A stretch of 64,000 nucleotides of DNA from Octopus vulgaris. Taxonomy: Eukaryota. This document shows positions 17,567-58,622 of the stretch, one piece after another (within the stretch, counting starts at the first letter, position 1; every line of letters starts with the position of its first letter). A model generated the notes under the pieces. It saw nothing but the letters and a program-made list of their open reading frames with translations, had not been told where the DNA came from and ran no database searches. The DNA is taken from the NCBI GenBank assembly GCA_951406725.2, contig OX597814.1, positions 122,760,001 through 122,824,000 of the forward strand, written 5' to 3'. The translations under genes and the position numbers were made by a program.

Positions 17567-17760
17567 AAGGGAAAGTTTACGAAAATAAACAAAAGACGAA
17601 GGCAGGTGAAGTACAAACAACCAAATGTATTAGTATAGCGCTCAGGAATAGAAATAGAAAAAGTCTTTTACGTTTCGAGCCTACGCTCTTCGACAGAAAG
17701 ATACACAGAAAAAAAACAAGGAGAGAAAAAATGCGTGTAGGAGCTAACGATCTATCATGG
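17567..17760 (-). mobile_element. PLE-type pseudo-LTR end, family P1 (also 22555-22730, 24125-24420)
   Basis: Three homologous copies (aaacaaaaga.gaag.c.ggtg...gtattagt...gctc.g.aa), each adjoining (TA)n at its 3' end. Confidence 0.75.
17664..17701 (-). ncRNA. Minimal type I hammerhead motif, position-6 U variant
   Basis: Reverse complement tcttt-CTGTCGA-a-gagc(gtag)gctc-GAAA-cg-TA-aaaga. Confidence 0.6.
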
Positions 17761-19398: not shown

Positions 19399-19551
19399 GC
19401 GCAGGAGTGGTAAGTTGCTTGCTTACCAACCACATGGTCCCAGGTTCAGTCCCACTGCGTGGCATCTTCGGCAAGTGTCTTCTACTATAGCCTCGGGCCG
19501 ACAAAGCCTTGTGATTGGATTTCGAAAACGGAAACTGGAAGAAGTCCTTCG

Positions 19552-19553
<2 letters not shown>
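19399..19553 (+). mobile_element. F2 SINE 5' half, running into (TA)n/(TATG)n
   Basis: F2 head through ggaaactggaagaagtccttcg. Confidence 0.85.
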
Positions 19554-19619
<66 letters not shown>

Positions 19620-19655
19620 TATGTATGTATGCATGCATGTATGTATGTATGTATG

Positions 19656-19689
<34 letters not shown>

Positions 19690-19746
19690 TGTATGTATGT
19701 ATGTATGTATGTATGTATGTATGTATGTATAAAGATAGAGAAAGAG

Positions 19747-20106
19747 AGGTGCAGGTTTGGGTGTGGTGAGATTCTTGCTTTCCAACCACATGTTTCCAGA
19801 TTCAGTCCTACTGTGTTGAACTTTATTCAAGTGTCTTCTACTATGGCCTCGGGCCGACCAAAGCCTTGTGAGTGGATCTGGTAGACGGAAACTGAAAGAA
19901 TCCCATCGTGTATATATTTGTGTGAAGGATAGAGCTGATGTCGGTGTGTTTACGTCTCAGAAACCTTAGTATTTCGGCAAAACTAACCGATAAAATAAGT
20001 AATAATATTACAAAGAATAAATCCTGGTGTCGTTTTTTTTTCCACAAAAAATCTTTGAAAGTGGTGCTCCAGCATGGCCGCAGTCAAATGACTGAAACAA
20101 GTAAAA

Positions 20107-20110
<4 letters not shown>
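19747..20110 (+). mobile_element. F2 SINE, diverged, short internal tract
   Basis: Colinear with F2 consensus. Confidence 0.85.
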
Positions 20111-20147
<37 letters not shown>

Positions 20148-22119: not shown

Positions 22120-22646
22120 TTATGTATAATATATATATGTATATATGTGTGTACGTTTGTATGCATGTATTCTGAATATTCCTGTGTTTGTGTGTATGTG
22201 TGCTTGTTTGCATGCGTGTGCGTGTCTGTGTGTACCTCTGTCTTCTTGTGAGTGCATGTCTGAGTGTGTGTGCGTGTGTACATCTGTCTCTTTGTCAGAG
22301 CATGTCTGAGCGTGTCTGTGTATGGGTTTTTCTGACTATGTACGTGCGTCTGTTATGTTTGGATGTGTGTCTCCAAATGTGTCCTTGTGTGAAGTGTGCG
22401 TGTGTGTATATGGTCATGGGTTTTGCGCATGTATGTGTGCTTCTCTGTTCATATTACCTATGTACCTATCTATCTGTATATCTATCTGTTTACATTCATA
22501 TCTATTTATCTACATATATATGCATATACATATATATACACATATACATATATAGGGGGAGAATTCACAAAAGAAACAAAAGAGGAAGACAGGTGGTGTA
22601 GACAACAAACATATGTATTAGTATAACGCTCGGAAAGTGAAAAAGT

Positions 22647-22682
22647 CTTTAACGTTTCGAGCCTACGCTCTTCAACAGAAAG
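22647..22682 (-). ncRNA. Minimal type I hammerhead motif, position-6 U variant (P1 copy 2)
   Basis: Reverse complement cttt-CTGTTGA-a-gagc(gtag)gctc-GAAA-cg-TT-aaag. Confidence 0.6.
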
Positions 22683-24117: not shown

Positions 24118-24624
24118 AGTTTAAATTTAGAGAAAAACAAAAGACGAAGACTGGTGTATGAACAACAAACAGGTGTATTAGTTTGGCGCTCGGGAAAGTG
24201 GGAAATTCTGTTCAACAGAAAGGAATATGAGGAAATAAACAAAGAGGAAAAAAAAAAGAGTTGCGGATTTAGCGATCGATCATGGCGACTGGTTAGGGAA
24301 AAAATAGCTTGACAGGAGAGCTAGGAAGAAGGGGAGATAATAAAGTATTGGAGAGTTTGTAAGTGTGGGTGGATAGGGGTCAATGACTTTGACGTGTGGA
24401 TGTGTGCGTAAGTGTGTGCGTCTATAATGTGTGATTGTGTGAATGATGGTGTGTGGAATGGTGTGAGATGCTGTGATACGGTGTGATGAAAGCGGGAGTC
24501 CGGATGGTCCCCGTGCAAAGACAATCCGAATATATATATATATACATACATTTTCTCGAAGAGCTGTTCACTAACACCGAATAAGAAACCACGTGACAGC
24601 AAAGCGATCTTCTTAACCACACAT

Positions 24625-29052: not shown

Positions 29053-29845
29053 ATCAGTTCTTTTTTTTTTTCGGTAAACATTATAACATCATTCCTAGAA
29101 TAACCATGACATTTATGTACGTAATTAAAGGGTTACAGTAAACCCCAGCAAGTATCAGTGTGACATTAATATCAAATTATTGAGACATTAATATCAAATT
29201 ATTTAATGCCCACTTTCCAGATGTTGACTGGATTGGATGGTTTGACAGGATCTGGCAAACCCCAGGGCCACACCAAGCTCCCTTTGTCATAATTTTATAC
29301 TAAAACCTCTTATTAACCTATATTTTAGATGTCAGATTACTAATGAAAAATAAAAATAATTTACTAAATCCATTCCAAATTCTTGATTATTTTCAGAGTT
29401 AACTGAAAAAACATCATCTTTGTTTAATGTCCATCTTCCATGCTGAAATGAGTTGGACAGTTCAACAGGATCTGAGGAGTCAGAAGACTGCATTAAGTTC
29501 CAATGTCTGCTTTGGCATGACTTCCAATGCTAGATGTCCTCCCTAACACCAATTACTCTACAGAATGTACTGAGTACCTTTTTTTCTTTTTCGTGGAATT
29601 AGGGTCACTATTTCATCTACCAGTCTACTGATTGATGAACACAACATTCCCCACAATGATGCCAAATAATGCTTCACAAGGTTTTAGTGATCCCAATAAA
29701 GATGACTTAAGCAGTATCAGTTCTGTTATTTTCGGTAAACATTTAACATCATTCCTAGAATAACCATGACATTTATGATCGTAGTTAAAGGGTTACAGTA
29801 AACTCCAGCTAGGGTCAGTGTGACATTAATATCAAATTATTGAGA
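29053..29845. repeat. Local ~130-bp direct duplication (29053-29185, 29716-29845) enclosing two related repeat fragments
   Basis: tcggtaaacatt.taacatcattcctagaataaccatgacatttatg...gtgtgacattaatatcaaattattgaga twice; inner fragments tttaatg.cca...cca...tggat/acag..t.acaggatctg at 29201 and 29423 resemble RTE-type 3' ends. Confidence 0.8.
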
Positions 29846-29953
29846 GGCGTGGCTGTGTAATAAGACGTTTGCTTCCCAACCACATTATTTCTGTTTCGAT
29901 CAAAGCTTTGTGAGTGGTTTTGTTAGACAGAATCTAAAAAAAACTTGTCATAT

Positions 29954-30206
29954 ATGACGAAGGACAATCATCCTGAAACATGTGTCCCTAGATGCAGCCC
30001 GGGCGGCCGGGGGTGTTTGTCTCCCCTTCGTAATTGTATATAAGGACACAGGAAAAATGTGTCAAAGCCATCAGGAGGCGTCGATGCTTCCTAGGGCTAA
30101 ACAGCGGTGGTGTACTGTCACGTTCGTGCTAGATTGACAGTATACAACCATTCTATCGCCCGTACATGTCTATACGAGGGATTTAGAAATTTAGTATTTC
30201 TGATTG

Positions 30207-30207
<1 letters not shown>
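29954..30207 (+). mobile_element. PLE-type fragment starting with a 5'-clipped hammerhead
   Basis: (a)TGACGA-agga(caatca)tcct-GAAA-catgt-GTC at 29954-29986; block ends in (TA)n. Confidence 0.55.
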
Positions 30208-30582
<375 letters not shown>

Positions 30583-31130
30583 TGTGTGTGTTTGCGTGTG
30601 TGCGTGTGTCTTTGTTTCTGCGTTTATGCCTCACCACTGGTTGATAATCGGTGTTCGTTTCTTTTCTTCCCCGTAACGTAGCGATTCGGCAATATAGACT
30701 GGGAGAATAAGTATCGGGCTTAAGAAAATGAGTACTGAGGTCGATTGTTTCGACTAAAACCTCTTCAAGAAGGAGATGCTCCAGCATGGCCGCAGTCTAA
30801 TGACTGAAATAAGTAGAAGCTAAAAAATATAGTACAGTGGGTGATGGTCTTCTAAATAACAAAACACTTTTCAACCAAACAGCATTCCCCAAATACCCAA
30901 TGTACTACGAGGCATTATGGCCATACAACAAGATAAAATTACTCGGCAAAGTATGACCATACAACACGACAAATGTATCAACACAGAACATCTACACAGC
31001 AATCTACAAGAAGACCAGATGAAACAACAATGCAACATATTACAATCACATTAAGTATGACCACTACAAATATATCACAATACACTTCTATCACAGAACG
31101 CTTCACCCTCACACAATAAAACAACAAATG

Positions 31131-31920
31131 AAGGCGGCGAGCTGGCAGAAACGCTATCCCGCCGGGCGAAATGCTTAGCAGTATTTCATCTACCGCTACG
31201 TTCTGAGTTCAAATTCCGCCGAGCTCGACTTTGCCTTTCATCCTTTCGGGGTCGATAAATTAAGTACCAGTTACGCACTGGGGTCGATGTAATCGACTTA
31301 ATCCGTTTGTCTGTCCTTGTTTGTCCCCTCTGTGTGTAGCCCCTTGTGGGTAGTAAAGAAATAGGTATTTTGTCTGCCGTTACGTTCTGAGTTCAAATTC
31401 CGCCACGGTCGACTTTGCCTTTCATCCTTTCGGGGTCGATACATTTAGTACCAGTTACGTACTAGGGTCGATGTAATCGACTCAATCCGTTTGTCTGTCC
31501 TTGTTTGTCCCCTCTGTGTTTAGACCCTTCTGGGTGAGAAATGCGTAGCCGTATTTCGTCTGCCGTTACGTTCTGAGTTCAAATTCCGCCACGGTCGACT
31601 TTGCCTTTCATCCTTTCGGGGTCGATACATTTAGTACCAGTTACGTACTGGGGTCGATGTAATCGAATTAATCCGTTTGTCTGTCCTTGTTTGTCCCCTC
31701 TGTGTTTAGACCCTTCTGGGTGAGAAATGCGTAGCCGTATTTCGTCTGCCGTTACGTTCTGAGTTCAAATTCCGCCGAGGTCGACTTTGCCTTTCATCCT
31801 TTCGGGGTCGATACATTTAGTACCAGTTACGTACTGGGGTTGATGTAATCGATTTAATCCCTTTGCTTGTCCTTGTTTGTCCCCTCTGTGTTTAGCCCCT
31901 TGTGGGCAATAAAGAAATAA
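31131..31920 (+). mobile_element. F1 SINE tandem tetramer (~185-bp period)
   Basis: tacgttctgagttcaaattccgcc at 31197, 31381, 31567, 31753. Confidence 0.93.
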
Positions 31921-32964: not shown

Positions 32965-33370
32965 TTATTTCTTTACTACCCACAAGGGGCTAAACACAGA
33001 GAGGACAAACAAGGACAGACAAACGGATTAAGTCGATTATATCGACCCCAGTGCGTAACTGGTACTTATTTAATCGACCCCGAAAGGATGAAAGGCAAAG
33101 TCGACCTCGGCGGAATTTGAACTCAGAACGTAGTGACAGATGAAACACCTATTTCTTTATTACCCACAAGGGGCTAAACAAAGAGGAGACAAACAAGGAC
33201 AGACAAACGGATTAAGTCGATTATATCGACCCCAGTGCGTAACTGGTACTTATTTAATCGACTCCGAAAGGATGGAAGGCAAAGTCGACCTCGGCGTAAA
33301 TTTGAACTCAGACCGTAACCGCAGACGAAATACGGCTACGCATTTCGTCCGGCGTGCTAACGTTTCTGCC
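32965..33370 (-). mobile_element. F1 SINE dimer inserted into the tail of an old F2 SINE
   Basis: F2 tail catggccgtagtccaataact breaks at ~32965 and resumes actgaaataagtaaaag at 33371. Confidence 0.85.
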
Positions 33371-35129: not shown

Positions 35130-36515
35130 CCATCACTTAGAAGAACTAACAGACATATCCTAGATAGATTCAAGTAGGTAGGACCTAATGAAAGCCCTTA
35201 ACTCCATAGGACTCAACATTACAGTCGAGATCAACCTTGCCCCTAAACTTTATGGGTGTTAGGTTGGACCTAGACAGGTATTCATACAGGCCCTACCGCA
35301 AACCAAACGAAAGGCTGTCGTATATCAAGACAGTCTCCCGCGATAGGTCTATAGTGTTAAAGAACATTGTAATGGGTGTCAGCAAGAGGATTTCGAACCT
35401 CTCTTCTAGACAAGAGATTTTCGACGCTGCAGTCCCCTCTTAAAACGAGGCTCTAGGGTCTAGTGTGTTTAAGGGCGACATTTCCTGCATGTCGGGCCCT
35501 AACACCCACAAAAGAAAGCGCCAACGTAAAATCGTTTGATTTACCCCCACCCTTCTCACTCAATGTCAAAACTTGTGTGGGAAGAATATTCCTTAGATTG
35601 GTGGACAAACACTTCAAACAGTAACTCAGATACGGACATTTACTTAATAGACACAAGTTTAGCGTCTCATTCAGATGCGCGCCCAGCACTAAGAAAATAT
35701 TTGTGAGACCTCTAAGCCACGAACAGAGGCAGGATTCTCATGTAGGGTGTACAATGACTGCTCAGTAGGAAGGTGTCGATGCGAAGCCAAGGAGTTCGTG
35801 TATGAAGCCAAGGGGGTGACCGGCACTGGTAATCAGAGCAGCAGCGGAGGTAGCAACGGCAGCAACGACATATTCATCGATAACAAGAGCAACAGCGACA
35901 GCAATGACAGCGGCAGCAGCAGCAGCGCGTTAAGCAGCAGAGGTTGCAATATCGACGATTACAACGCGGCAACAACATTAGCAATACAGCTGGTAATGGC
36001 AGCTACACCAGAGACATCTGCAATACCAGGATCACGCCCAGGAAAACATCAGCGGCAACGAGTCCAGCCACTACACCTGCAGCAACAAAAGCAACGGCAA
36101 CAACGCCTGCATCGGGCCCGATAAAGACAGCAGCAGAGTTAAGGAAAGCAACACCAGCGACCGTAGAACATCCAGCGCATAGTCACGGAAATATGTCGGT
36201 TCCACCGGCGGCTCCTTTGAGCAGCGTCTGAGTAACCACAGATTCTCCTTTAGGATATCGGAGAGGCGCAAAATCACGTCCCTGACCAGCCATGTGTGGC
36301 GTTTAAAAGAGAAGAGTATGCCATACAGTATTAAATGGAAGTTTCTCGAACAACCGAGGTAATATAACAATGGGAGCGAACGATGTAAGCTTTGCTTGGC
36401 CGAGAGAGCAAGAATCCTGGAAAACTTGCTTGTCCTGGAGGCCTTTTTAAACTCTAAAAAAGATGTGTTTAGTCAACGTCCGCAACAGAGACGTTTCTTG
36501 CTGCAAGCTTGGAAT
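35130..36515 (+). pseudogene. PLE RT-thumb/linker/GIY-YIG remnant
   Basis: NFMGVRLDLDRYSYRPYRKPNERLSYI...KRISNLSSRQEIFDAAVP; FSLNVKTCVGRIFLRLVDKHF; EFVYEA; SHVWRLKEKSMPYSIKWKFLE..*YNNGSERCKLCLAERARIL..FLNSK..RRFLL; stops and frameshifts; (CAG/CAA)-rich insert at ~35835-36180. Confidence 0.85.
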
Positions 36516-37705
36516 TACCAATTTTCCGTATAGGAGCATGCCACCACCTTCGAATCTTAAACCGATTGCACAATTGCATTTCGTTTTATCATAAAAAGCT
36601 GATGAATTGTGACGTTTCTGTCTTACTCAGGAGCAGTTTTGTTATAAAGTAAAATTAAATGGTTTCAACCGAGAATGGAAACCGTATCGTTGTGTTGACT
36701 TAGCGTAAGCTTGATTCTAGCACTACATCACTTATCGCTCGCATTTAAACATTGCTAATGAAGCCATAATATTTATTATGCTACATCAACGTCCATCACT
36801 GATAGCGTCGCAATTGTTTGAGTAAGTTGTTATAGCTGAATGGCATTGTTTAACCGTAAGTTCATAGCTGGGCAGAGTAAGATAAGATTATCATAGGAAG
36901 ATTAGCGAATGATAAAGATAATTTAATTTTTAGTTATAGACCAAAACACTTGGCTGGAGAATCTAGAGAGCAGGACATTTTATTAGTTATAGAACAAATG
37001 AGAGATTTCGAACAAAGACTAATGGCGATTTTTATCAGAAACGACGATGATTTAAGTACTGCAGTGTTTGCTATTTTCTCGAGAGATAAAAGGGGAAATA
37101 TATGTAAGAGTTTTAAAAGGAGAAATAGTATTCGCAGCAGCTTAATTTATCAGAAGTTTTATAAGAAAAGAGACGGAGATAAAAGAAGAGGAAGTAAGAG
37201 AAGGAAAGAAAAAGAGAAAAAGGAAAATAAAGAAGTGGTCTGGCTAAATTCATACAGAAGAATACGTTGCAGTCAAATATTGAATTTCTGGCATTCTTGG
37301 AAAAACAAAAAAAAATTTTTTAACAATCCATTTTTTTCCCTTTTTTTTTTTTGTTTGCTGTCAGATTAGCAAAGGTTGTAAGAAGAATATTTTAAAATGT
37401 CCCTCCCTTCTCCCTTGAGGGCTTCTGAAAAGTGAGAAAGTTATGTTTAGCTTCAGTTACATAGCTTGAAGCAGCTGTAGGATAAAAACAAAAAAAAATG
37501 TCCGCGGAATAGGATGATGATGATAAGGAGGAGGAGGAGGTCTTAGGAGGGAAGGAAAAGAAACAGAAAGTGTTGTAGCAGCCTATAGAACCTTAACAAG
37601 TAATGTAAAGCGCACTGCTAACACAGTAGGACACGATGTCATATAAAAACGTTTAATATGTTTTAAAGAAACGAAATACTACGTCCCTACAAGTCATTAA
37701 TATTC

Positions 37706-41417: not shown

Positions 41418-41632
41418 TCTTCCATCCCACGTGTCCGTTCTTGTTTGTTTAGTCCATTCTCAGTAGGAGAAACGTGGAATGGAAGTTTTTACAGGGCCAG
41501 CATTAGTCTATGTGGTGAATATGGAATAATCATATCAAAAGAATACGAATGAAAGAATTTATTTAGCCCCGGATCCAAGCTCCGAAACTTACTTCTCCAG
41601 CCTGTTTCAAACAAACGAAACGTTAGTAAACA

Positions 41633-42051
41633 ACTGCAGCGTGGAAGGTCTTTATAAGCCATTTAAAAACACACAAAAACCGTTAGATTCATTTCAACAT
41701 TTAAATTGAATTTGTCAAAATATTTTATTTCTTTATTGCTCACAAATGGCCAAACATAGAGGAGTCAAACAAGGACAGACAAAGGGATTAAGTCGATTAC
41801 ATCGACCTCAGTGTGTAACTAGTACTTAATTTATCGACCCATAAATGTTGAAAGGCAAAGTCAACCTTGGCAGAATTTGAAATCATTTGTCAAAATATTT
41901 TCGTCCTTTTGAAACCGCGACCTGCTCACTGACAAAATTCCGTGCAGCCAAAGCGACGAAAATATTTTGACACATTAAATTTAAATGTTGAAGTGAATTT
42001 AACGGTTTTTGCATGTTTTTCTAATGGTTTATAAACACCTTCAACGCTGCA
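41633..42051. mobile_element. Inverted-repeat PLE-type fragment; left arm interrupted by an F1 SINE (41727-41882, minus) with 17-bp TSD
   Basis: 41634-41726 is the reverse complement of 41959-42050; atttgtcaaaatatttt duplicated at 41710 and 41885. Confidence 0.8.
41886..41936 (-). ncRNA. Minimal hammerhead motif, G3:C8 swapped core
   Basis: Reverse complement tttgtca-GTGAGCA-g-gtc(gcggtttcaaaag)gac-GAAA-atat-TT-tgacaaa; the other arm has gcgac-GAAA, extending stem II to gtcgc/gcgac. Confidence 0.65.
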
Positions 42052-42280
42052 ATTGTTTTTGGTTCAGCACACGATTTCAAATCAGGTCACTTGCCATTTA
42101 AGTAGATCTCCGAAACACTAGTAATTGCACAATAATAATTCATTACAGTAACGGGTTTTTTTCATTGTCCGTTTCGTATTAGGAATTAAGTACGAGTCGA
42201 AATGCAAAACGGAAAACTAAAACTGAAAAGTCGTTTTATAACTAGCTGTACCATCTTGGACTCAAGGGTACTAGATTGTA

Positions 42281-42512
42281 TTCTTTTATTATTTTCTATT
42301 ATCTTTTTCAGTCATTTGACTGCGGCCATGCTGGAGCACCGCCTTTAGTCGAGCAAATCGACCCCAGGACTTATTCGGTGTAAGCCTAGTACTTATTCTA
42401 TCGGCCTCTCTTGCCGCACCGCTAAGTTACGGGGACATAAACACACCAGCATCGGTTGTCAAGCGATGTTAGGGGTACAAACACAGACACACAAACATAT
42501 ATATATATATAT
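42281..42512 (-). mobile_element. F2 SINE 3' half (likely 5' half at 45596-45724)
   Basis: Reverse F2 tail and body up to the internal (TA)n. Confidence 0.88.
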
Positions 42513-42597
42513 GTAGGCCCCGGGTTGAGTCGGGGTTAACCACAATAAATAAGGTACTCAATACATAGCAGAGTAAAGTAATTTATTTTATAGAAGG

Positions 42598-42648
42598 AGC
42601 TTCTACAGGACTAGAACTGTTTCATTCAGATGAAATCTTCAGGAAGCT
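42598..42648 (-). ncRNA. Type I hammerhead motif, canonical core
   Basis: Reverse complement agcttc-CTGAAGA-tttcatctgaat-GAAA-cag(ttctagtc)ctg-TA-gaagct. Confidence 0.75.
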
Positions 42649-44096
42649 GGCTGTCAAAATAAGTTCTGGTATTTATGCATTTAGGCAGATTTAATTGAGT
42701 GGTGGTGGGGGACGTTTTTTAGGGTAGGTTGGTATTTAGGAGATAAACAGAGCACAAGCTATTGTTCTTAGGGGAGTGGTCAAAAGGCCAGAGTGTTTAT
42801 TGAAATGAGAAGAATCAGTGAGAAAATAAATAAATGAATAAATAGAATAAATGAATAGAAACAGATATATGGGATGGGATTTTAGGTGAATTAGAAGACA
42901 ATTGCTTTTTGGTGGTCAAGAAGAGGTAGGCAGTTTGTTATTGTTAGGTGGAGGGAATAAATAGATAAATATACATGATAAAACATATAAAATAAATATA
43001 CATACAAACACACATACAAACATACATACACATGCGAGTATGCATATGCATACATACATACGCACATATATACATACACATACACACACACATATATACA
43101 TACATAAATACATACATGCACAGATATATACACATATACACATATACATACATACACACATATATATAAATACACATATATATATATGCATATATATATA
43201 CATACATAAACATATACATATGTATATACATACATAAAAACATACACACACATACAACCATATGTATATATATACACATATACATATATATATATATATA
43301 CATGTATACACGCGTATACATACATATGTACATATATACACAAACACACACATACACGCATACACATACGCATGCACATATACATATGCACACATACATA
43401 CATATGCACATATATACATATATGTGCATATATACATATGCACATATATATATGTATATAATCTTAGGAGAGAAGGTAATTGGGGGTGATGAAGGAACGG
43501 TGGTGGGGTGGGGTGGGGTGGGGTGGTTCGTGGGTGGGGTGTCGTCAATCGGGTGGCCGGGTGGGTCTGTAATTTTTGTAGTTTGCATAGATTTTGTGCA
43601 TACAGTTTGGGGAGTGTTCCGAGATTTTGTTGAGGAGAGGGCCTTTGGCGAATAAGATCTCCAAGCTCTCAGAAATGCAAAGATCACAGCAAGTATGGCC
43701 TCCCGTGTAAGAACGCGCTCTCTGGAGTAGTCTCCACTTGATCTTGAAGGGGATGGAGTTCCTTTTTCATGTATATTTATCTATTTATTCCCTCCACCTA
43801 ACAATAACAAACTGCCTACATCTTTTTGACCACCAAAAAGCAATTGTCTTCTAATTTACCTAAAACCCCATCCCATATATCTGTTTCTATTCATTTATTC
43901 TATTTATTCATTTATTTATTTTCTCACTGATTCTTCTCATTTCAATAAACACTCTGGCCTTTTGGCCACTCCCCTAAGAACAATAGCTTGTGCCCTGTTT
44001 ATCTCCTAAATACCAACCTACCCCCAAAAAACGCCCCCACCACCACTCCATTAAATCTGCCTAAATGCATAAATACTAGAACTTATTTTGACAGCC

Positions 44097-44147
44097 AGCT
44101 TCCTGAAGATTTCATCTGAATGAAACAGTTCTAGTCCTGTAGAAGCT
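44097..44147 (+). ncRNA. Type I hammerhead motif, canonical core
   Basis: agcttc-CTGAAGA(44103)-tttcatctgaat-GAAA-cag(ttctagtc)ctg-TA-gaagct; predicted cut after GUA at 44141. Confidence 0.75.
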
Positions 44148-44165
44148 CCTTCTATAAAATAAAAT

Positions 44166-44199
<34 letters not shown>

Positions 44200-44416
44200 T
44201 AATGTAGGATAAAATTTTTTCGGGTAAAAAAATTTTATCAATGGCCAGCATATCAAAAAATACCTTTAAAGGTTAAATTTATAAATAATTTACAAAATAA
44301 GGGCAAAAGAAAAATTCTAATGCCAAATATGCCGAAAAACGACAATAATTGTCAATAAACCATTATAATTTATGCGTGTCGAAACAAACCGATAGAAATC
44401 TCTAAAAAATTCGTTA

Positions 44417-44477
44417 TTACCGTACTGGTCCAATTTCGGGGTTAATTCGTTAGAAATTTTCCCCTCTTCAGCGGCAA
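44417..44477 (-). ncRNA. Type I hammerhead motif (P2)
   Basis: Reverse complement ttgccg-CTGAAGA-gggg(19 nt)cccc-GAAA-ttggaccag-TA-cggtaa. Confidence 0.8.
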
Positions 44478-44655
44478 ATACGCGAGATATAAGTGAAATA
44501 CTTACTCATACCCATGGAAAAAGCAAGCACTAAGTCCCGAGCAGAGCCGAAGATTTTTCTATTTTGGATATATTTGGGGTACTTAGTTCTGCTCGGGACT
44601 TAGTGCTTGCTTTTTCCATGGGTATGAGTAAGTATTTCACTTATATCTCGCGTAT

Positions 44656-44716
44656 TTGCCGCTGAAGAGGGGAAAATTTCTTACGAATTAACCCCGAAAT
44701 TGGACCAATACAGTAA
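44656..44716 (+). ncRNA. Type I hammerhead motif (P2)
   Basis: ttgccg-CTGAAGA-gggg(19 nt)cccc-GAAA-ttggaccaa-TA-cagtaa; one stem I mismatch. Confidence 0.72.
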
Positions 44717-44845
44717 TAACGAAATTTTTAGAGATTTCTATCGGTTTGTTTCGAGACGCATAAATTATAATGGTTTATTGACAATTATTGTCTTTTTTTT
44801 CGGCATATTTGGCATTAGAATTTTTCTTTTGCCCTTATTTTGTAA

Positions 44846-44899
<54 letters not shown>

Positions 44900-44902
<3 letters not shown>

Positions 44903-45432
44903 CAATAATAACAAAGAGTAAAATTAATTAATTCACTAGTAATCAATAATTTCACCAAGTAGAATTCGGCATGAAAAGGGACCATTTGTCGGTAAACTTA
45001 AATAATATTTTATAATTAGGGTTCAGCAAAGATTTACTTTACCACATACCGAAGTTTAGAAATAGCAGCCAGAGAAACTTAGCTATTTCCTCTACTTTAA
45101 AAAGAGATTCCCGGACAAAAACAAAGTACTCGAAAACAATCCACGCAGGCAGAGAGGAAAAATAACGAAAATCAATCGATATTTGATTACCCATGTACGC
45201 ATTTCGAAATTAGATCGGTATAAAGAATGTAGAATTTATACTTTACCTGGAACATTTTCCTCATCAGCATGGAACTTCACAATATTAAATCTGGAGGCAC
45301 AGGAAGAATTGAATATACCTCTCCAGCTAACAGTATCAGATCTTTTTAAAGTAGAGGAAATAGGTAAGGTTCTCTAGCTGCTATTTCTAAACTTCGGTAT
45401 GTGGTAAAGCAAATCTTTGGTGAACTCTAATC

Positions 45433-45435
<3 letters not shown>
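44900..45435. mobile_element. Third inverted-repeat fragment between (TA)n tracts (arms ~45016-45105, 45340-45432)
   Basis: ttagggttcagcaaagatttactttaccacataccgaagtttagaaatagcagc is mirrored by gctgctatttctaaacttcggtatgtggtaaagcaaatctttggtgaactctaa. Confidence 0.65.
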
Positions 45436-45495
<60 letters not shown>

Positions 45496-45496
45496 T

Positions 45497-45724
45497 CCTT
45501 GAGCATGTGTCTTCTACTATTGCCTTGGGCCGACCATAGCCTTGGGAGTGGATTTGGTAGACGGAAACTGAAAGAAGCCCGTCGTATATATATATGTCTA
45601 CCAAATCCACTCCCAAGGCTTTGGTCGGCCCGAGTCAATAGTAGAAGAAACATGCCCAAGTGGGACTGAACCCGGAACATGTGGTTGGTAAGCAAGCCAC
45701 TTATCACACAGCGACTCCTGCACC
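45497..45724 (-). mobile_element. F2 SINE 5' half (45596-45724) with a local inverted copy (45497-45585)
   Basis: F2 head on minus strand; plus-strand mirror fragment across (TA)6. Confidence 0.85.
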
Positions 45725-46222: not shown

Positions 46223-46436
46223 ATAGGAGTGGCTATAGGCGCAGGAGTGGCTATAGGCGCAGGAGTGGCTATAGGCGCAGGAGTGGCTGTGTGGTAAGTA
46301 GTTTACTTTCCAACCATATAGTCCCAGGTTCAGTCCCACTACGGGACATCTTGGGCAAGTGTCTTCTACTATAGTCTCGGGCCTACCAAAGCCTTGGGAG
46401 TGGATTTGGTAGTAGACGGAAACTGAAAGAAGCTTG

Positions 46437-46688: not shown

Positions 46689-46807
46689 CTATATGTACAT
46701 ATACGCAAGAAGAAAACGGAGGAAAATAGCAAAAAGTTGAAGTTGATCGTTTACGGTAGTAAAACATTAATTTAATTAATAAAGAAAAGTGTTAGTAATA
46801 TTAAATT

Positions 46808-46857
46808 TACGACCGTTTCTGTTTACCAGTTGTATTTGTAGACATCGTCAGAATGTA
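46808..46857 (-). ncRNA. Degenerate hammerhead motif
   Basis: Reverse complement CTGACGA-tgtctac(11 nt)gtaaaca-GAAA-cg-GTC; stem I poor. Confidence 0.5.
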
Positions 46858-47294
46858 GAGTCATATATAGAGGTAAGAAGAGCGAGAGACATAGGGATAC
46901 ATTGGTAACGAGAACACAGACAAAGAATGGTGAGTCTTACATTATAGTAGATTTCTTAGTTTACCCCTTGAATTACCTGCCATCCAGGTAATCACCGGAG
47001 CTTTTAGGATTTAACCATCCCTTAGAGATTTAAAACACTGCTAAAGTATACCTATATATATATATATACATATATTTATGTATGTAAATATGTATGTAGT
47101 AGAAATATGTTACAAAAAGAAAATAGAAACTACACACGTGAAAATGTAAAGGAAAGGAAGAAGAAAATAAGCGAAAATGCAAATTGGAAATCAAAAAAGT
47201 AAAGGCTTTTTATGAAAAGTTACGATAGATATATAGTTGAACTGAGGTAGGAATAAAAGTAATAAAAGTCATTATTGTGAATTGTTAAAGAGAT

Positions 47295-47337
47295 TCAAAA
47301 CATACCGGTTTCGTAAAATTACTAATCATTGCTTTGA
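47295..47337 (-). ncRNA. Minimal hammerhead motif, A3:U8 core variant
   Basis: Reverse complement tcaaagca-ATGATTA-gta(attt)tac-GAAA-ccgg-TA-tgttttga; 8-bp stem I; just downstream of a GIY-YIG remnant on the same strand. Confidence 0.68.
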
Positions 47338-47534
47338 ATGCACACTGATTACCGAACGGTGTCAGGTCTACTAGTCCCCAAGTAAAAAGATTATGTGTAA
47401 GGGAGATAAGTAGTTCTGGATTTGGTGCAGTTAGGGTAGATATAGATCTGTAATGTGAATGGTGTATAGGATGTATGGGTATTAGTGGTATAATTGAAAG
47501 GTTAGTAGTGTTCTGTATTATGTTATGTGTTCAT

Positions 47535-47890
47535 ATTGAGTTGTGGAAGATATTTATTGATGAAAGTTGTCTCTTTATTCATTCTTTGTTGTACTGAGGT
47601 GTTCTGTGAACATTGATAGAAGGCAAAATTAGGAAATTAGGATTAAGATTCCTAGCACACCTTTCTATGTGTTCACTGACCTGTATCTCTCTGTATTGTG
47701 GGTGGCGGATTTGCTCTTTGTGGAGAGTGGTTCTACGACGGAGTGATATTGCCGTTTGGCCAATATAGTTATTACCACACCCTAAGCATGTGGTGGGATA
47801 TATTATATTTTCCGAGGCACAGGTAACATTTGATTTAATCTTAAATATTTCACCTTGTTTAAAGTGGAACTCTCAACCCTCCAAAAAGGT
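47535..47890 (-). pseudogene. PLE GIY-YIG endonuclease remnant
   Basis: FKQGEIFKIKSNVTCASENIIYPTTCLGCGNNYIGQTAISLRRRTTLHKEQIRHPQYREIQVSEHIERC; 5'-truncated near (TA)n at ~47900. Confidence 0.9.
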
Positions 47891-47900
47891 GGGGATATAC

Positions 47901-47997
<97 letters not shown>

Positions 47998-49735
47998 GTG
48001 TATTCAGTATATAGTGTATATGTATTTGTACGCATGTGTTAGTTCTTGAGTTGTACGAGATGAGAATTAAACGAGCTGTTAACCACATGCTCAAAACTCT
48101 GACTCACCATTTCTTTAATAATATTTAATGAAGTTAAGACGCCTACGAAACCATAAGAAACGTGATTTTATTTTTAACCAAAAGTCTTACTGAATCCTGG
48201 TAGAAGACCATATTGTCTACAGTACCAGATGACTAAAACTGATTGTCATAGCTTTTATACGCGAGTAGCTGTCGTCTATTTGAACCAAATTGTCTGGATC
48301 GTTGTATTTCTTATTGTAAACACACCACGCTGAAATCAACGTTGGGCGGTGAGTGAAAGCAAACAGCAGGATTTAATGAAAATCTCTGTTGCTATGATAT
48401 CACTGAAAATACATAATTTTGTCTGTTTTATATATTTTTGTCGTTTCTGTGTTTCATTTTCTCCATGATGCTTTTTCTACGTTTATTTTCCTCTTCGCCC
48501 CTCATATCCATTATACATACATACGCGCACGCATACACACACACGTGTGTGGGTGTATGTATGTATATGTTTGTGTTTTCGTGTACCATTTAACATATGT
48601 ACAGTTCTACATAATGGATTTTGTAATAAATTATGGTTTTATCGTAGTGAAATATAAACGTTTTTTCTTTGTTTTTTTTTTCTTTTTGAAAATATACCTG
48701 TCATCATTTCTTGTTTACGTAACATCTCTCTTTCCCTCTCTCTTTCTTTCTCCCTCTCTCTCTCTATATATATATGTATGTGTGTGTGTGTGTGTGTGTA
48801 TGTATATGTATATCTTTCTCTAAATATAAGAGCTTATTTTATTGTTCAATATTTTTAGGATAATCCTGACTGAGGTCGACAAATCAAGATAAGAGAAAAA
48901 TTGTGGAATGTCTTGATTAATCAGAGAGAATTCTAATAAATCATATTTAGATACAAGTTAATGAAAACTGCGACGTTTGTAAATAATAAACTTCTTAAAA
49001 AGTCGATAATCATAATTTCATAGCTTCATAAAGTCGATAATTTATAATTTGTCATGAAAATCATTATATTTATAATATATCGTTGTTGAAAATAAAGAAA
49101 ATATGAAGGTAAGCAAAAAATATATTTTATTTTTCAGCTCAATAGACGATTTGAAAGATGTCTGAACATACAGAGTATATAAAAAAGTCGTCTACTGGAG
49201 AAAAACGGCGCAGAGCTATTGAATACATAGTTATGATGTGTAGATATTAATTTTTTTTCATTTAACTTTATTATGGTTTAACCGTAAGAGAAAGTGCAAT
49301 AGTTGTGACCCTTGCCAGCATCTCCAATGCTGATGGGAGAAACAAGACGAGAAACCTGACCTGAATGTTTACAACAGTGAAGATTTTACTTAAAATACCC
49401 AAGGGGACAAGTGATTTTGTTAAAGCAGGTAGCTAATTTAGTACACCCCCACAAGAACAGGAATGGTATTCCAACGGGATTTCCGTAGCTATAGAACAAA
49501 ATATTTGCCCATTGTGCATGGAAATGAAACCGAACCCGAACTTGCATAGTTGTTGAACTAACTTCTCAACTACACATACATTCTTTTCTTTTCTCATTTA
49601 TCTTTTACAGTCATTGAAGTGCAGTCTTGTAGTCGAGCATATCGATCCCAGTACTTTGTTTTTAAGCTTGATTCCTATCGACATATTAATACAAAGTTAC
49701 GGGAGATAAATAAAGGCACATACAAGCACATGTAT

Positions 49736-49792
<57 letters not shown>

Positions 49793-49937
49793 GTAGATGA
49801 AACAGGGACATATATTGCATGTCTCGTTTCTCATTGTGTTCAACGTTTTCTATGTCTTGTACCCATATATGCATGTATATATACATATATATGTAGGTAT
49901 GTACATATATGTATGTATATATGCATATATATATATA

Positions 49938-50203
49938 TTTGGGGTACTTAGGTCTGCTCTGGACTTCGTGCTTGCTTTTTCCATGGGTATGAGTAAGTAT
50001 TTCATTGATATCTCGCGTATTTACCGCTGAAGAGGGGAACATTTATTAATTAACCCCGAAATTGGACCAATACGGTAATTACGAATTTTTTAGTGATTTC
50101 TCTCGGTTTGTTTCGAGACGCATAAATTATAATGGTTATTGAAAAGTTTTGTCTTTATTTCGGCATATTTGGCATTAGAATTTTTCTTCTGCCCTTATCT
50201 TGT

Positions 50204-50206
<3 letters not shown>
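49938..50206 (+). mobile_element. P2 pseudo-LTR single copy between (TA)n tracts
   Basis: Aligns with 44572-44847. Confidence 0.85.
50021..50078 (+). ncRNA. Type I hammerhead motif (P2), all stems intact
   Basis: ttaccg-CTGAAGA-gggg(16 nt)cccc-GAAA-ttggaccaa-TA-cggtaa. Confidence 0.82.
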
Positions 50207-50267
<61 letters not shown>

Positions 50268-51515
50268 TATATATATAGGAACACATGCATATACACATAT
50301 ACATAAGTAAATACATATTAGATTGCTGACAATAGGTTCAAATGAAAGCGCGCTCAATAGGCTCTCACTACAACCTCTCCTATCCGGCGTGAAGTAGCTT
50401 TCTGTTCTTTTTCCAACGGCTGTACATTCTTCATATTAATAGGACAGAGAATCCTCTACAGACAACCTGAACGGGAAATAGCAATTACCAGCATCTTTTC
50501 TCCCTGTAATTGTACAAAAGGTTCTGCTGCTTGGTGCGTTTCCTTTCAGAGGCTTAATCACACCATTATTTCTGTGAGACTATAAGCTCAATCGGAATCC
50601 TCCTCTTTGCATTTTCACATCACAAAACAACGTCTGGCCTCAAGATAGTCATGACTACCTGAGGATACAGTAGTCTTCACCATCCCACCGCCGGTCACTT
50701 TCATATTCCATGATCAAATTTCTTCTTGTAAACTACTTGCTCTTTTTACTGTAGTCAATTACTTTCCTCTTTCTTTCGCGAAATTCATTGATAGTATTTC
50801 TTTTACTGCTGATTTTTGTTGTGTTTTGCCTCCTACTACATATCTGAGCAAGTTTCTTCTCATTTTGCACATGAATAGAAGTGTAAAGAAAAGTATCATA
50901 TGAAGTATTTAAGAAGATTATTTTTACATATTAAATGGTTTCACAATTTCATGATTCTCAAAAGTAATGTAACTCGGAGGAACTAGAAACACTACATTTG
51001 AAAATCATGAAATTGCAAAACATGTTAAGTAAATGTAAATAAATCTTCTTACAGATTTCAAATACATTTTCAACGTCTTTTCATTATACAAATACATACA
51101 TACATAAATACATACATATATACATATACATATATATATATTGATAAAAATGGTAAGACAACAAAAGAAAGAAAGAGACCTCGATATTATGTAAATAGAG
51201 GAATTTATATGTAAATGTTATATGTGACAATTATTCGGCGGCGTGGTTTTTCCACATCGGCATCCGAAACTCGGAGTTTTATCATGGCTACCGAATAGTT
51301 GTCACATATTACATTTACAGATATACACACACACACATATATATATATGTATGTATGTATGTTCTGTATGTATGTATGTATGTATGTATGTATGTATGTA
51401 TGTATGTATGTATGTATTATGTATGTATGTGTGTATGTACTATGTATGTATGCACGTGTGTATGTATGCATATATATGGATATGTATGCATGCATATATT
51501 CCATTCCATATCGGC

Positions 51516-51616: not shown

Positions 51617-52165
51617 TACGAGAGTGAATCAAAAAGTAATGCCATTTTGTTTAGGACAGGTATAATTATCAACACAGGAACATGTATCATGCATCAAAAT
51701 GATGCTGGTCCTCTGTGGATCACATCCCTACTTCTCAATATATTGACCGTTTCTCTCGATAGCAATGTTCCACTTTCGAATAAGAGCATGTATCCCTGCC
51801 CCATAAAATTCTGGTGACTGTTCTTTGAGCCACTTCTTCACTACAGTTTTCACTTCCTCGTCACTGGAATATTCTTCGGCCCCATGAAAGAGGGTTTGAG
51901 AAGCAAGCATTATTCCAGTGACGAGGAAGTGAAAGCTGTAGTGAAGAAGTGGCTCAAAGAACAGTCACCAGAATTTTATGGGGCAGGGATACATGCTCTT
52001 ATTCGAAAGTGGAACATTGCTATCGAGAGAAACGGTCAATATATTGAGAAGTAGGGATGTGATCCACAGAGGACCAGCATCATTTTGATGCACGATACAT
52101 GTTCCTGTGTCGGTAATTATACCTGTCCTAAACAAAATGGCATTACTTTTTGACTCATCATCGTA
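51617..52165. mobile_element. Mariner-derived fold-back element built from two inverted 3' ends
   Basis: ~255-bp arms with few mismatches; TA at both ends; plus strand 51874-52053 encodes FGPMKEGLRSKHYSSDEEVKAVVKKWLKEQSPEFYGAGIHALIRKWNIAIERNGQYIEK*, a mariner transposase C-terminus. Confidence 0.9.
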
Positions 52166-53301: not shown

Positions 53302-53888
53302 TTATTTCTATACTACCCACAAGGGGTTAAACACAGAGAGGACAAACAAGGACAGACAAACGGATGAAGTCGATTATATTGACCCCAGTGCGTAACTGGT
53401 ACTTACTTAATCGACCTCAAAAGGATGAAAGGCAAAGTCGACCTCGGCGGAATTTGAACTCAGAACGTAGCGGCAGACCGGTAGACGAAATACCTATTTC
53501 TTTACTACCCACAAGGGGCCAAACACAGAGGGGACAAACAAGGATAGACACACGGATTAAGTCGATTATATCGACCCCAGTGCGTAACTGGTACTTAATT
53601 TATCGACCCCGAAATGATGAAAGGAAAAGTCGACCTCGACGGAATTTGAACTCAGAACGTAAGGGCAGACGAAATACCTATTGCTTTACTACCCACATGG
53701 GGCTAAACATAGAGTGGACAAACAAGGACAGACAAACGGATTAAGTCGATTATATCTACCCTAGTGCGCAACTGGTACTTAATTTATCGATCCCGAAAGG
53801 ATTAAAGGCAAAGTCGACCTCAGAACGTAACTCAGAACGTAATGGCAGACGAAATACCGCTAAGCATTTCGCCCGGCGTGCTAACGTT
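53302..53888 (-). mobile_element. F1 SINE tandem trimer
   Basis: Units start at ~53302, 53494, 53677. Confidence 0.92.
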
Positions 53889-58456: not shown

Positions 58457-58622
58457 TAATTTCGAGATAGTATACCCGTACATTCTCACCAAATAAAAAG
58501 AATTTTTATTTTTATTTTAAATACCTACTGTAACAGGCTAAGTAATAAAACAGTAGGTATTTAAAATAAAAAAAGAGTTCTTTTTATTTGGTGAGAAGTA
58601 CGGGTATAGTATCTCGAAATTA
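58457..58622. repeat. ~75-bp-arm inverted repeat between (TA)n tracts
   Basis: taatttcgagatagtatacccgtac...aaatacctactgt mirrored by acagtaggtattt...gtacgggtatagtatctcgaaatta. Confidence 0.85.

Follow-up and report, generated by a model that had tools for sequence, protein, structure and literature searches.

Probable remains of three Penelope-like elements nested in the TA tract of what is likely a single SINE copy in Octopus vulgaris

Among described systems, the closest to the structures considered here are Penelope-like elements (PLEs) equipped with a GIY-YIG endonuclease (EN+ PLEs). A standard PLE insert comprises a 5'-truncated copy, an inverted truncated copy at its 5' end, and a tail at one end (PMC8557442, PMC3846280). 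The tail is the stretch between two start sites of the reverse transcriptase (RT), both target strands being extended (PMC3846280, PMC11167929), and in vitro the anole PLE has been found to nick and extend both strands and to begin reverse transcription at two sites, one on either side of the tail (Frangieh et al. 2024, PMC11167929). Hydra-clade members are distinguished by a C-terminal GIY-YIG domain with CxxC and CxH around conserved E and N residues, no CCHH motif, and a CxCX5C linker (Craig 2021, PMC8557442, section 11), together with RWK and DKT motifs in the RT (PMC8557442). Of 27 Hydra families, 26 are listed as preferring (TA)n, among them an Octopus bimaculoides family, Hydra-1_Obim, and Penelope-13_HM combines an inverted 5' copy with one hammerhead ribozyme motif on each strand (PMC8557442); opposite-strand hammerhead pairs 100-700 bp apart are also described in Schistosoma (PMC4209133). 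For Octopus vulgaris itself, 31 recently active Penelope-like families have been listed (PMC13282606). We describe here a locus at positions 42281-45724 of a 64,000-nucleotide stretch of the O. vulgaris genome (contig OX597814.1, positions 122,760,001-122,824,000 of the forward strand; hereafter the window, whose first letter is position 1), where three fold-back elements, E1, E2 and E3, lie within the internal TA tract of a short interspersed nuclear element (SINE) of a family that we call F2. E1-E3 are probably the 5'-truncated remains of three (TA)n-targeting PLEs, inserted successively by target-primed reverse transcription in what is likely a single SINE copy.

The arrangement is real and well preserved: nested inside the TA tract of the SINE are three probable PLE fragments, together with a local inversion. 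Read along the forward strand, the locus consists of a minus-strand F2 3' half with its A-rich end (42281-42496, aligned by BLAST to eight other 3'-half pieces in the window), (TA)8 representing the rest of the F2 internal tract (42497-42512), E1, (TA)14 (44169-44196), E2, (TA)25 (44849-44899), E3, (TA)29 (45436-45493), a plus-strand F2 fragment (45494-45584), (TA)5 corresponding to the inverted start of the original F2 tract (45585-45595), and a minus-strand F2 5' half made up of the head and of the body as far as an inversion break (45596-45724). An earlier note on this DNA had described the SINE halves and three inverted-repeat elements bounded by (TA)n, and all were recovered within a few bases of where it had placed them. 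No mutual similarity was detected by BLAST among E1, E2 and E3 (word size 7, E<=0.05).

The assignment of E1 to PLEs of Hydra-clade type is supported by its endonuclease (EN) remnant, its hammerheads and its anatomy. Its parts are collinear on the minus strand, running from an inverted arm (43763-44166, itself of plus orientation) through the EN C-terminus, an untranslated region (UTR), a compound AT/AC microsatellite (42983-43460, either element UTR or target-derived), a main arm resembling the pseudo-long terminal repeat (pLTR) of PLEs (42579-42982, minus strand) and a 66-nt 3' extension or "tail" (42513-42578, minus strand), to TA; a TA tract stands at each end of the element, marking (TA)n as its insertion site. 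The tail, recognized by comparison of the arms, is missing from the inverted arm and is putatively of element origin. Alignment of the arms, each of about 404 nt, reveals 11 substitutions in 403 columns, and motif scanning places a type I hammerhead in both: that of the main arm has its core at 42642, predicted cleavage after 42604 and U-U at positions 10.1/11.1, and that of the inverted arm has its core at 44103 and predicted cleavage after 44141. By a count made by eye, the table of Craig 2021 also shows U-U at this position for 14 of its 25 Hydra families (PMC8557442).

The coding remnant in the loop of E1 is a stop-free minus-strand frame of 73 residues (43548-43766), corresponding to the C-terminal portion of an apparent GIY-YIG endonuclease with the pattern CxxC..E plus N..CxH. 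A phmmer search of 1.84 billion representative proteins returned 117 matches at E<=0.001, the best at 1.4e-8. Among these relatives CxxC..E, as in the query, is present in 114 and N..CxH in 111, and a CxxC of CCHH type before YxG was seen in none of the 42 that could be assessed (a region absent from E1 itself). Assignment to the Hydra-clade type is based on the agreement of these motifs with the marks given by Craig 2021. A YxDD motif of reverse transcriptases is found in three of the 117; E1 itself lacks an RT. One relative of 504 aa (P0053) matches the E1 frame at 43% over 60 aa, and the ESM Atlas places the frame with a cluster of eukaryotic GIY-YIG fragments (0.93). When ten relatives and a second frame of the window, near 47.6 kb, were compared with Pfam, one of the 11 showed a sub-threshold GIY-YIG match, the other matches being unrelated and likewise sub-threshold. 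A profile made from the 117 matches recovers E1 at 3e-27, a circular result that is not counted as evidence.

For E2 and E3, identity as PLEs is supported by hammerhead and anatomy: in both, a pLTR-type hammerhead is combined with an inverted, 5'-truncated copy and a one-sided tail, which is longer than those reported and putatively element-derived. The 91-nt extension of E2 (44197-44287, minus strand) contains a 14-bp hairpin and is followed by a left arm (44288-44545, minus strand) whose hammerhead (44417-44477, core 44471) has, by strict scan and arm alignment, every core position and stem. A 42-nt spacer (44546-44587, plus strand) includes 19 nt of 5' sequence belonging to the right-hand copy and common to a family copy at 49933; the right arm (44588-44847, plus strand) has a hammerhead (core 44662) with one derived mismatch in stem I. 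Between these arms of about 258 nt there are 8 substitutions in 269 columns, six within the arm proper and the other two in columns of the junction outside it; polarised on the family copy, private substitutions number four on the left arm and two on the right. That second copy (49933-50207) is a single arm located beside (TA)n, 7-8% diverged, with the same terminal base as E2. The 3' end of the family falls 135 nt past the predicted cleavage site, and the intact hammerhead of the single-arm copy (core 50027) is the best-folding of the window (1.5 kcal/mol). Thus the tail of E2 occurs on the left arm only and the right copy reaches at least 19 nt further 5', so that, if the putative tail does come from the element, neither arm would be a mere duplicate of its partner. 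This asymmetry fits the two-start-site result obtained in vitro for the anole PLE.

E3 is organized on the same plan, with a 105-nt 3' extension (44900-45004, minus strand) of putative element origin, a main copy (45005-45340, minus strand) in which an arm (45005-45105) adjoins a unique centre, and a short plus-strand inverted arm (45341-45435) that has no hammerhead. The centre carries a hammerhead (45190-45273) with a 55-nt stem-loop II and a minimal palindromic stem III. Its arms, of about 101 nt when aligned as 45005-45105 and 45341-45441, differ by 8 substitutions in 101 columns. A tail-bearing copy joined to a tail-less inverted copy is therefore the layout of three out of three elements. 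In passing, the terminal hairpins of the E1 and E2 tails (42513-42540, 44197-44245) are both succeeded, on the sense strand, by one and the same 7-mer, CCTACAT, possibly by chance, these families being otherwise unrelated.

Altogether the interval contains five type I hammerhead motifs, with cores at 42642 (E1 left, minus), 44103 (E1 right, plus), 44471 (E2 left, minus), 44662 (E2 right, plus) and 45267 (E3 centre, minus). The four canonical motifs on both strands that had been noted before are all present, one in each arm of E1 and E2, and the minus-strand motif in the centre of E3, which had been overlooked, raises the count. In the four parts that are not microsatellite, a strict scan detected two motifs, those of E2 left and of E3; 500 dinucleotide shuffles gave a mean of 0.01 and a maximum of 1. 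A relaxed scan detected six in the whole window (the five of the interval and that of the second E2-family copy), and 15 block shuffles yielded 0-1 each; the scanner had been tuned after the motifs were seen, to admit the U-U of E1 (in place of G10.1-C11.1) and the stem I mismatch of E2 right. Predicted hammerhead sites are 135-296 nt from the 3' ends of the elements, as in the pLTRs of PLEs. Only three motifs of the window conform to a strict descriptor of minimal hammerheads, and minimum-free-energy folding of the isolated regions did not single out the hammerhead fold. Six short motifs of the window are absent from the accessible portion of the Craig 2021 supplement (PMC8557442), where line breaks could mask matches. 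Elsewhere in the window, three members of one family (17569-17691, 22557-22673 and 24135-24196) each start beside a TA run, and two have a degenerate minus-strand hammerhead-like core; they failed the descriptors, as did a remnant at 29954.

The two F2 halves are likely to represent one SINE copy. From the majority of other copies the 5' half differs at 8 of 124 positions (6.5%) and the 3' half at 12 of 197 (6.1%), and this equal divergence fits a single copy. The comparison by subfamily also favored the earlier reading of one SINE, the halves being of the same younger sequence type, on the same strand and in the correct order. A target-site duplication (TSD) was not found at the outer flanks of the split copy; since five of the six intact F2 copies are likewise devoid of one, and the sixth is embedded in a microsatellite, its absence is uninformative as a refutation. 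All six uninterrupted copies in the window have an internal TA/TG tract. The F2 head includes motifs that we take to be A-box- and B-box-like, and the whole presumably resembles known Octopus SINEs; Ohshima and Okada reportedly described, in 1994, the tRNA-derived Octopus SINEs OR1/OR2/OK (cited in PMC4758252). As regards such elements, F2 comprises a head with these box-like motifs, a body and an A-rich end, and ARAGORN reported no tRNA gene. Two further arrangements of the family may be recorded: at 19404-20139 an F2 5' half is followed by TA/TATG repeats and then by a complete older F2, the 3' half of the first copy not having been found, and an intact F2 has its initial 18 nt in a perfect tandem repeat of 3.6 units (46225-46288).

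The 5' half has itself been rearranged. It stops 22 nt before the tract, and the 22-nt segment that precedes TA in F2 occurs here only in inverted form, at 45563-45584 (one mismatch on the opposite strand, at best nine on F2's own strand); hence the junction of 45596-45724 with the TA tract is not a simple one. The plus-strand fragment at 45494-45584 is an inverted duplicate of part of the 5' half together with this inverted segment, making a fourth fold-back, in which 65 nt of body are duplicated with 5 substitutions in 65 positions between the arms. Two substitutions are common to both arms and missing from all seven other aligned copies, and the duplication must therefore be local. In structure it is a local inversion with duplication that matches class 3-1-2-4, "inverted repeat with inverted spacer" (PMC5453318), and a template switch of that class may have produced it.

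A course of events can be proposed that would account for the locus as a whole. A minus-strand F2 with an internal (TA)n/(TG)n tract would have inserted first, as suggested by its halves being about 6% diverged alike. A PLE GIY-YIG endonuclease would then have nicked both strands of the TA tract, each 3' end serving as primer for reverse transcription that began at one or other of two neighbouring start sites on the element RNA, and two short cDNAs may have joined head to head to yield a tail-bearing copy and a tail-less inverted copy. Every insertion has TA on both sides, by which the target would be regenerated and might be used again. In a separate event, some 90 nt of the SINE would have been duplicated in inverted orientation through a short template switch at the TA tract. 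Halved arm divergences (1.4% for E1, 1.5% for E2, 4.2% for E3 and 4.1% for the F2 inversion, all below the 6.5% of F2) lend weak support to an order in which F2 was followed by E3 and the F2 inversion and then by E2 and E1, possibly in two waves.

Fold-backs are not peculiar to PLEs, and one alternative is that E2 and E3 are non-autonomous DNA transposons, either miniature inverted-repeat transposable elements (MITEs) or fold-back derivatives of TA-targeting Tc1/mariner, bearing hammerhead-like motifs by chance. The window does contain a non-PLE fold-back at 51617-52165, a near-perfect palindrome (93% arms) with two pieces of a transposase C-terminus that we take to be mariner-like, so that the fold-back shape alone is not PLE-specific, and neither E2 nor E3 has a coding remnant to set against this explanation. 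However, their arms are asymmetric, with one-sided extensions of 91 and 105 nt, the single-arm E2 copy at 49933-50207 is an impossible product of transposition by an element with terminal inverted repeats (TIRs), and the hammerheads greatly exceed shuffle rates at the very distances from the 3' ends that are seen in pLTRs; we give this alternative little credence. Matching inverted termini are lacking in E1 as well, with its 66-nt one-sided extension, and a TIR transposon or MITE was rejected as a description of all three elements. So was a non-LTR retrozyme (LTR, long terminal repeat), whose units are direct tandem repeats with a type I hammerhead in each (bioRxiv 10.64898/2026.07.22.740005), the copies here being inverted, not tandem. 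Even further from likelihood is the notion that the palindromes are assembly or chimeric-read artefacts. Inverted repeats beside long TA runs are hard to assemble, and assembly problems with PLE structures were noted by Craig 2021 (PMC8557442), but the arms differ by 3-8%, the one-sided tails, fixed 3' ends and coding remnant in a loop match described biology, and there is no N anywhere in the 64-kb window; private changes on both arms of E2, together with the tails and the coding remnant, are what make an artefact very unlikely.

A closer competitor accepts that the elements are PLEs and places the origin of the inverted arms later: single truncated insertions would have acquired them when the DNA folded back or the template was switched at fragile TA tracts, or else when a single cDNA primed itself by snap-back. 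Such an event did affect the F2 5' half at the same tract, the inner junction of E1 is self-complementary at 8 of 9 nt (judged by eye), and self-priming has been proposed for PLEs (PMC3846280). Nonetheless, each E2 arm holds sequence that the other lacks, the inverted arm of E2 shares its terminal base with an independent copy, which points to an RT start site and not to a random switch, and the same layout recurs in all three elements; later formation of the arms is accordingly judged unlikely. A similar standing is given to the proposal that the F2 halves stem from different copies, joined by deletion or by recombination between TA tracts. The missing TSD, the rearranged 5' half and the orphan halves elsewhere in the window (a 5' half at 19404-19551 and a 3' half at 49581-49730) would be in keeping with it. 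Set against these are a common strand, the right order, parts that are complementary once the inversion is undone, the matched divergence and sequence type described above, and intact copies that mostly lack a TSD as well, all of which make a union of two copies improbable.

Successive target-primed insertion of three PLEs into one SINE remains our preferred interpretation, against which a number of observations must nevertheless be weighed. Rfam, at gathering threshold, has no match in the window, and of seven hammerhead regions folded in isolation, five do not surpass shuffled sequence (z -0.21 to 1.06), the remaining pair scoring -1.74 and -2.17. Pfam has no match to the 73-aa fragment of E1, a word-index protein search for longer relatives of it yielded nine candidates, none significant, and the CxCx5C linker is strictly present in only 16 of 48 long relatives and in a looser form in 26 of 48 (a region absent from E1). 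E2 and E3 have no coding remnant, their status as PLEs being drawn from hammerhead and anatomy only. The tails of E1-E3 have no second copy in the window and so are possibly unrelated DNA; at 66-105 nt they also exceed the 30-40 nt of the literature. No TSD backs the single-copy status of F2, and the correlation of 5' and 3' distance profiles among copies is not significant (rho 0.52, p 0.29, n=6). All three elements have the same orientation, which has a chance of 1 in 4 and is not predicted by independent insertion. The age order is weak, the four comparisons (of six) that set a young fold-back against an old one having uncorrected Fisher p values of 0.03-0.14, and may be blurred by homogenisation of hairpin arms; clustering of arm substitutions, a sign of gene conversion, gave p 0.03-0.07 before correction for junction columns.

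Whether the hammerheads could act in their present setting is a separate matter. The earlier note had suggested that a read-through RNA from either strand could self-cleave, a suggestion that finds little support. The array might be regarded as a strand-independent self-cleaving cassette, in view of its five motifs (three minus, two plus), the modest cost of adopting the hammerhead fold in isolation relative to the ensemble, at least for E1 (4.1 kcal/mol) and E2 left (2.4 kcal/mol), and the position of the E3 motif outside its arms; the corresponding costs are 6.6 (E2 right) and 9.7 (E3) kcal/mol. On both strands, however, the antisense arm would be transcribed ahead of the sense hammerhead, and in E1 and E2 each motif is predicted to be locked in a hairpin of 260-400 bp. 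Within whole elements the predicted cost rises to 84 (E1), 95 (E2 left), 92 (E2 right) and 17 (E3) kcal/mol, with all stem probabilities at 0.0, these costs and pair probabilities being equilibrium predictions. The minimal stem III of E3 is moreover of the kind found in metazoan PLE hammerheads that show no monomer cleavage in vitro (PMC4209133), no host transcript was identified, and no host exon was seen: in a frame scan, which is not a gene prediction, one of the 49 frames of at least 85 aa in the window matched Pfam, with a retroelement-type zf-RVT domain. A self-cleaving cassette is thus very unlikely. The predicted product of read-through is instead long double-stranded RNA (dsRNA), in which the hairpins of E1 and E2 would mask their own hammerheads. 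Long dsRNA could feed ADAR editing or RNA interference (RNAi). As for the elements themselves, hammerhead cleavage is dispensable for PLE insertion in vitro (PMC11167929), and the fragments E1-E3 encode no RT and are dead.

A further suggestion was that the microsatellite of the SINE serves as a landing pad for successive PLEs. The PLE identity of the inserts, their successive insertion at (TA)n and, probably, the singleness of the SINE are upheld; special targeting of the SINE is not shown, as PLE pieces also adjoin TA outside F2 and enrichment cannot be gauged from one window. Runs of (TA)6 or longer number 63 in the window, and (TA)n targeting explains the data. Of eight F2 copies with both halves in register, two are interrupted, namely the copy at 42281-45724 and an old one at about 29845-30820. 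The internal tract of the latter, a plus-strand copy, contains both a piece of 250 nt that opens with a truncated hammerhead-like core (29954) and, in minus orientation, a different SINE (30239-30463). Near the second E2-family copy there is an orphan old F2 3' half; the succession at 49581-50277 runs from this minus-strand half (49581-49730) through (CA)26, 75 unexplained nt and a microsatellite to the single-arm copy. A different PLE fragment (46690-47895, minus strand) is bordered on one side by a TA tract that lies in no F2 interior and on the other by an intact F2, whose 3' end it reaches. At 47579-47872 there is a GIY-YIG frame of CCHH type (CxxC between the motif halves; Neptune- or Penelope-like), which the ESM Atlas relates to GIY-YIG clusters (0.96), and a looser hammerhead occurs at 46851. 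It is tempting, if doubtful, to view F2 as a mobile docking site, each copy seeding a (TA)n that would be hit repeatedly, in one polarity, by several PLE clades. Self-renewing arrays might result, whose inverted arms silence the ribozymes and supply dsRNA to cephalopod ADAR or RNAi, and thousands of dead inserts might then preserve a record of how PLEs integrate, in tails of 66-105 nt specific to each clade and in arms whose unique sequence marks two independent priming events.

The remaining repeats of the window are varied. An old, broken PLE of Hydra type lies on the plus strand at about 35450-36650, with EN pieces at 36183-36359 and 36363-36530, and resembles by eye the Hydra-1_Obim consensus. 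Immediately before the locus, a fold-back at 41628-42058, with 100-nt arms 11% diverged, is split by another SINE, which stands between direct repeats of about 16 nt (41710, 41885), and is likely a MITE with a nested SINE. Small AT-rich palindromes at 50898-51063, 51206-51323 and 58457-58622, the last directly beside a TA tract, are likely MITEs as well. A second SINE family forms tandem arrays of 2-4 units, with periods of 184-192 nt, at 31168-31906, 32966-33317 and 53303-53858. The minus-strand segment 59133-61005 is the 3' remnant of a long interspersed nuclear element (LINE) and includes the zf-RVT match; its C-terminus is presumably of the restriction-like endonuclease type.

When the locus is compared with known systems, every component behaviour proves to be known already: PLEs that target (TA)n, carry tails and inverted copies and bear hammerheads on both strands have been described before. 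The three PLE families and their stacking are probably uncatalogued; in the literature, in which subscription journals were thinly covered, we found no description of PLEs stacked in the internal microsatellite of a SINE. The locus is useful for repeat annotation and is a possible polymorphic marker. If SINE microsatellites do concentrate PLE insertions, bursts of SINEs would steer where another class of retroelement lands. The asymmetry of E2 bears on the formation of PLE inverted repeats, a question listed as unresolved by Craig 2021 (PMC8557442).

With the Hydra-clade EN+ PLEs, as represented by Penelope-13_HM and Hydra-1_Obim (PMC8557442), E1 shares the CxxC/CxH form of the GIY-YIG domain, a type I hammerhead with U-U at 10.1/11.1 near its 3' end, a (TA)n target, an inverted 5'-truncated copy, and hammerheads on both strands. 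It departs from them in a stem III loop of 8 nt instead of 1-2 nt, in its 66-nt tail and in being only a 3' fragment, and is not Hydra-1_Obim, for which a different hammerhead is listed (PMC8557442). The head-to-head inverted pLTRs and one-sided tail of E1-E3 agree with the general anatomy of EN+ PLEs (Arkhipova et al. 2013, PMC3846280; Frangieh et al. 2024, PMC11167929); the locus differs in the length of the tails (66, 91 and 105 nt against 30-40), in the stacking of three families in one tract, and in TSDs that are unreadable inside (TA)n. The F2 inversion corresponds to the template switch of class 3-1-2-4 (Loytynoja and Goldman 2017, PMC5453318), but involves about 100 nt, has its points of switching within a TA tract or adjoining one, and is deduced from paralogous copies and not from an orthologous ancestor. 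Finally, like the type I hammerheads of PLEs (Cervera and de la Pena 2014, PMC4209133), the present motifs are found in pLTR remnants and have a palindromic or short stem III; compared with these, stem III of E2 can close as a monomer (4 bp, 3-nt loop), and the stem-loop II of E3, at 55 nt, is unusually long.

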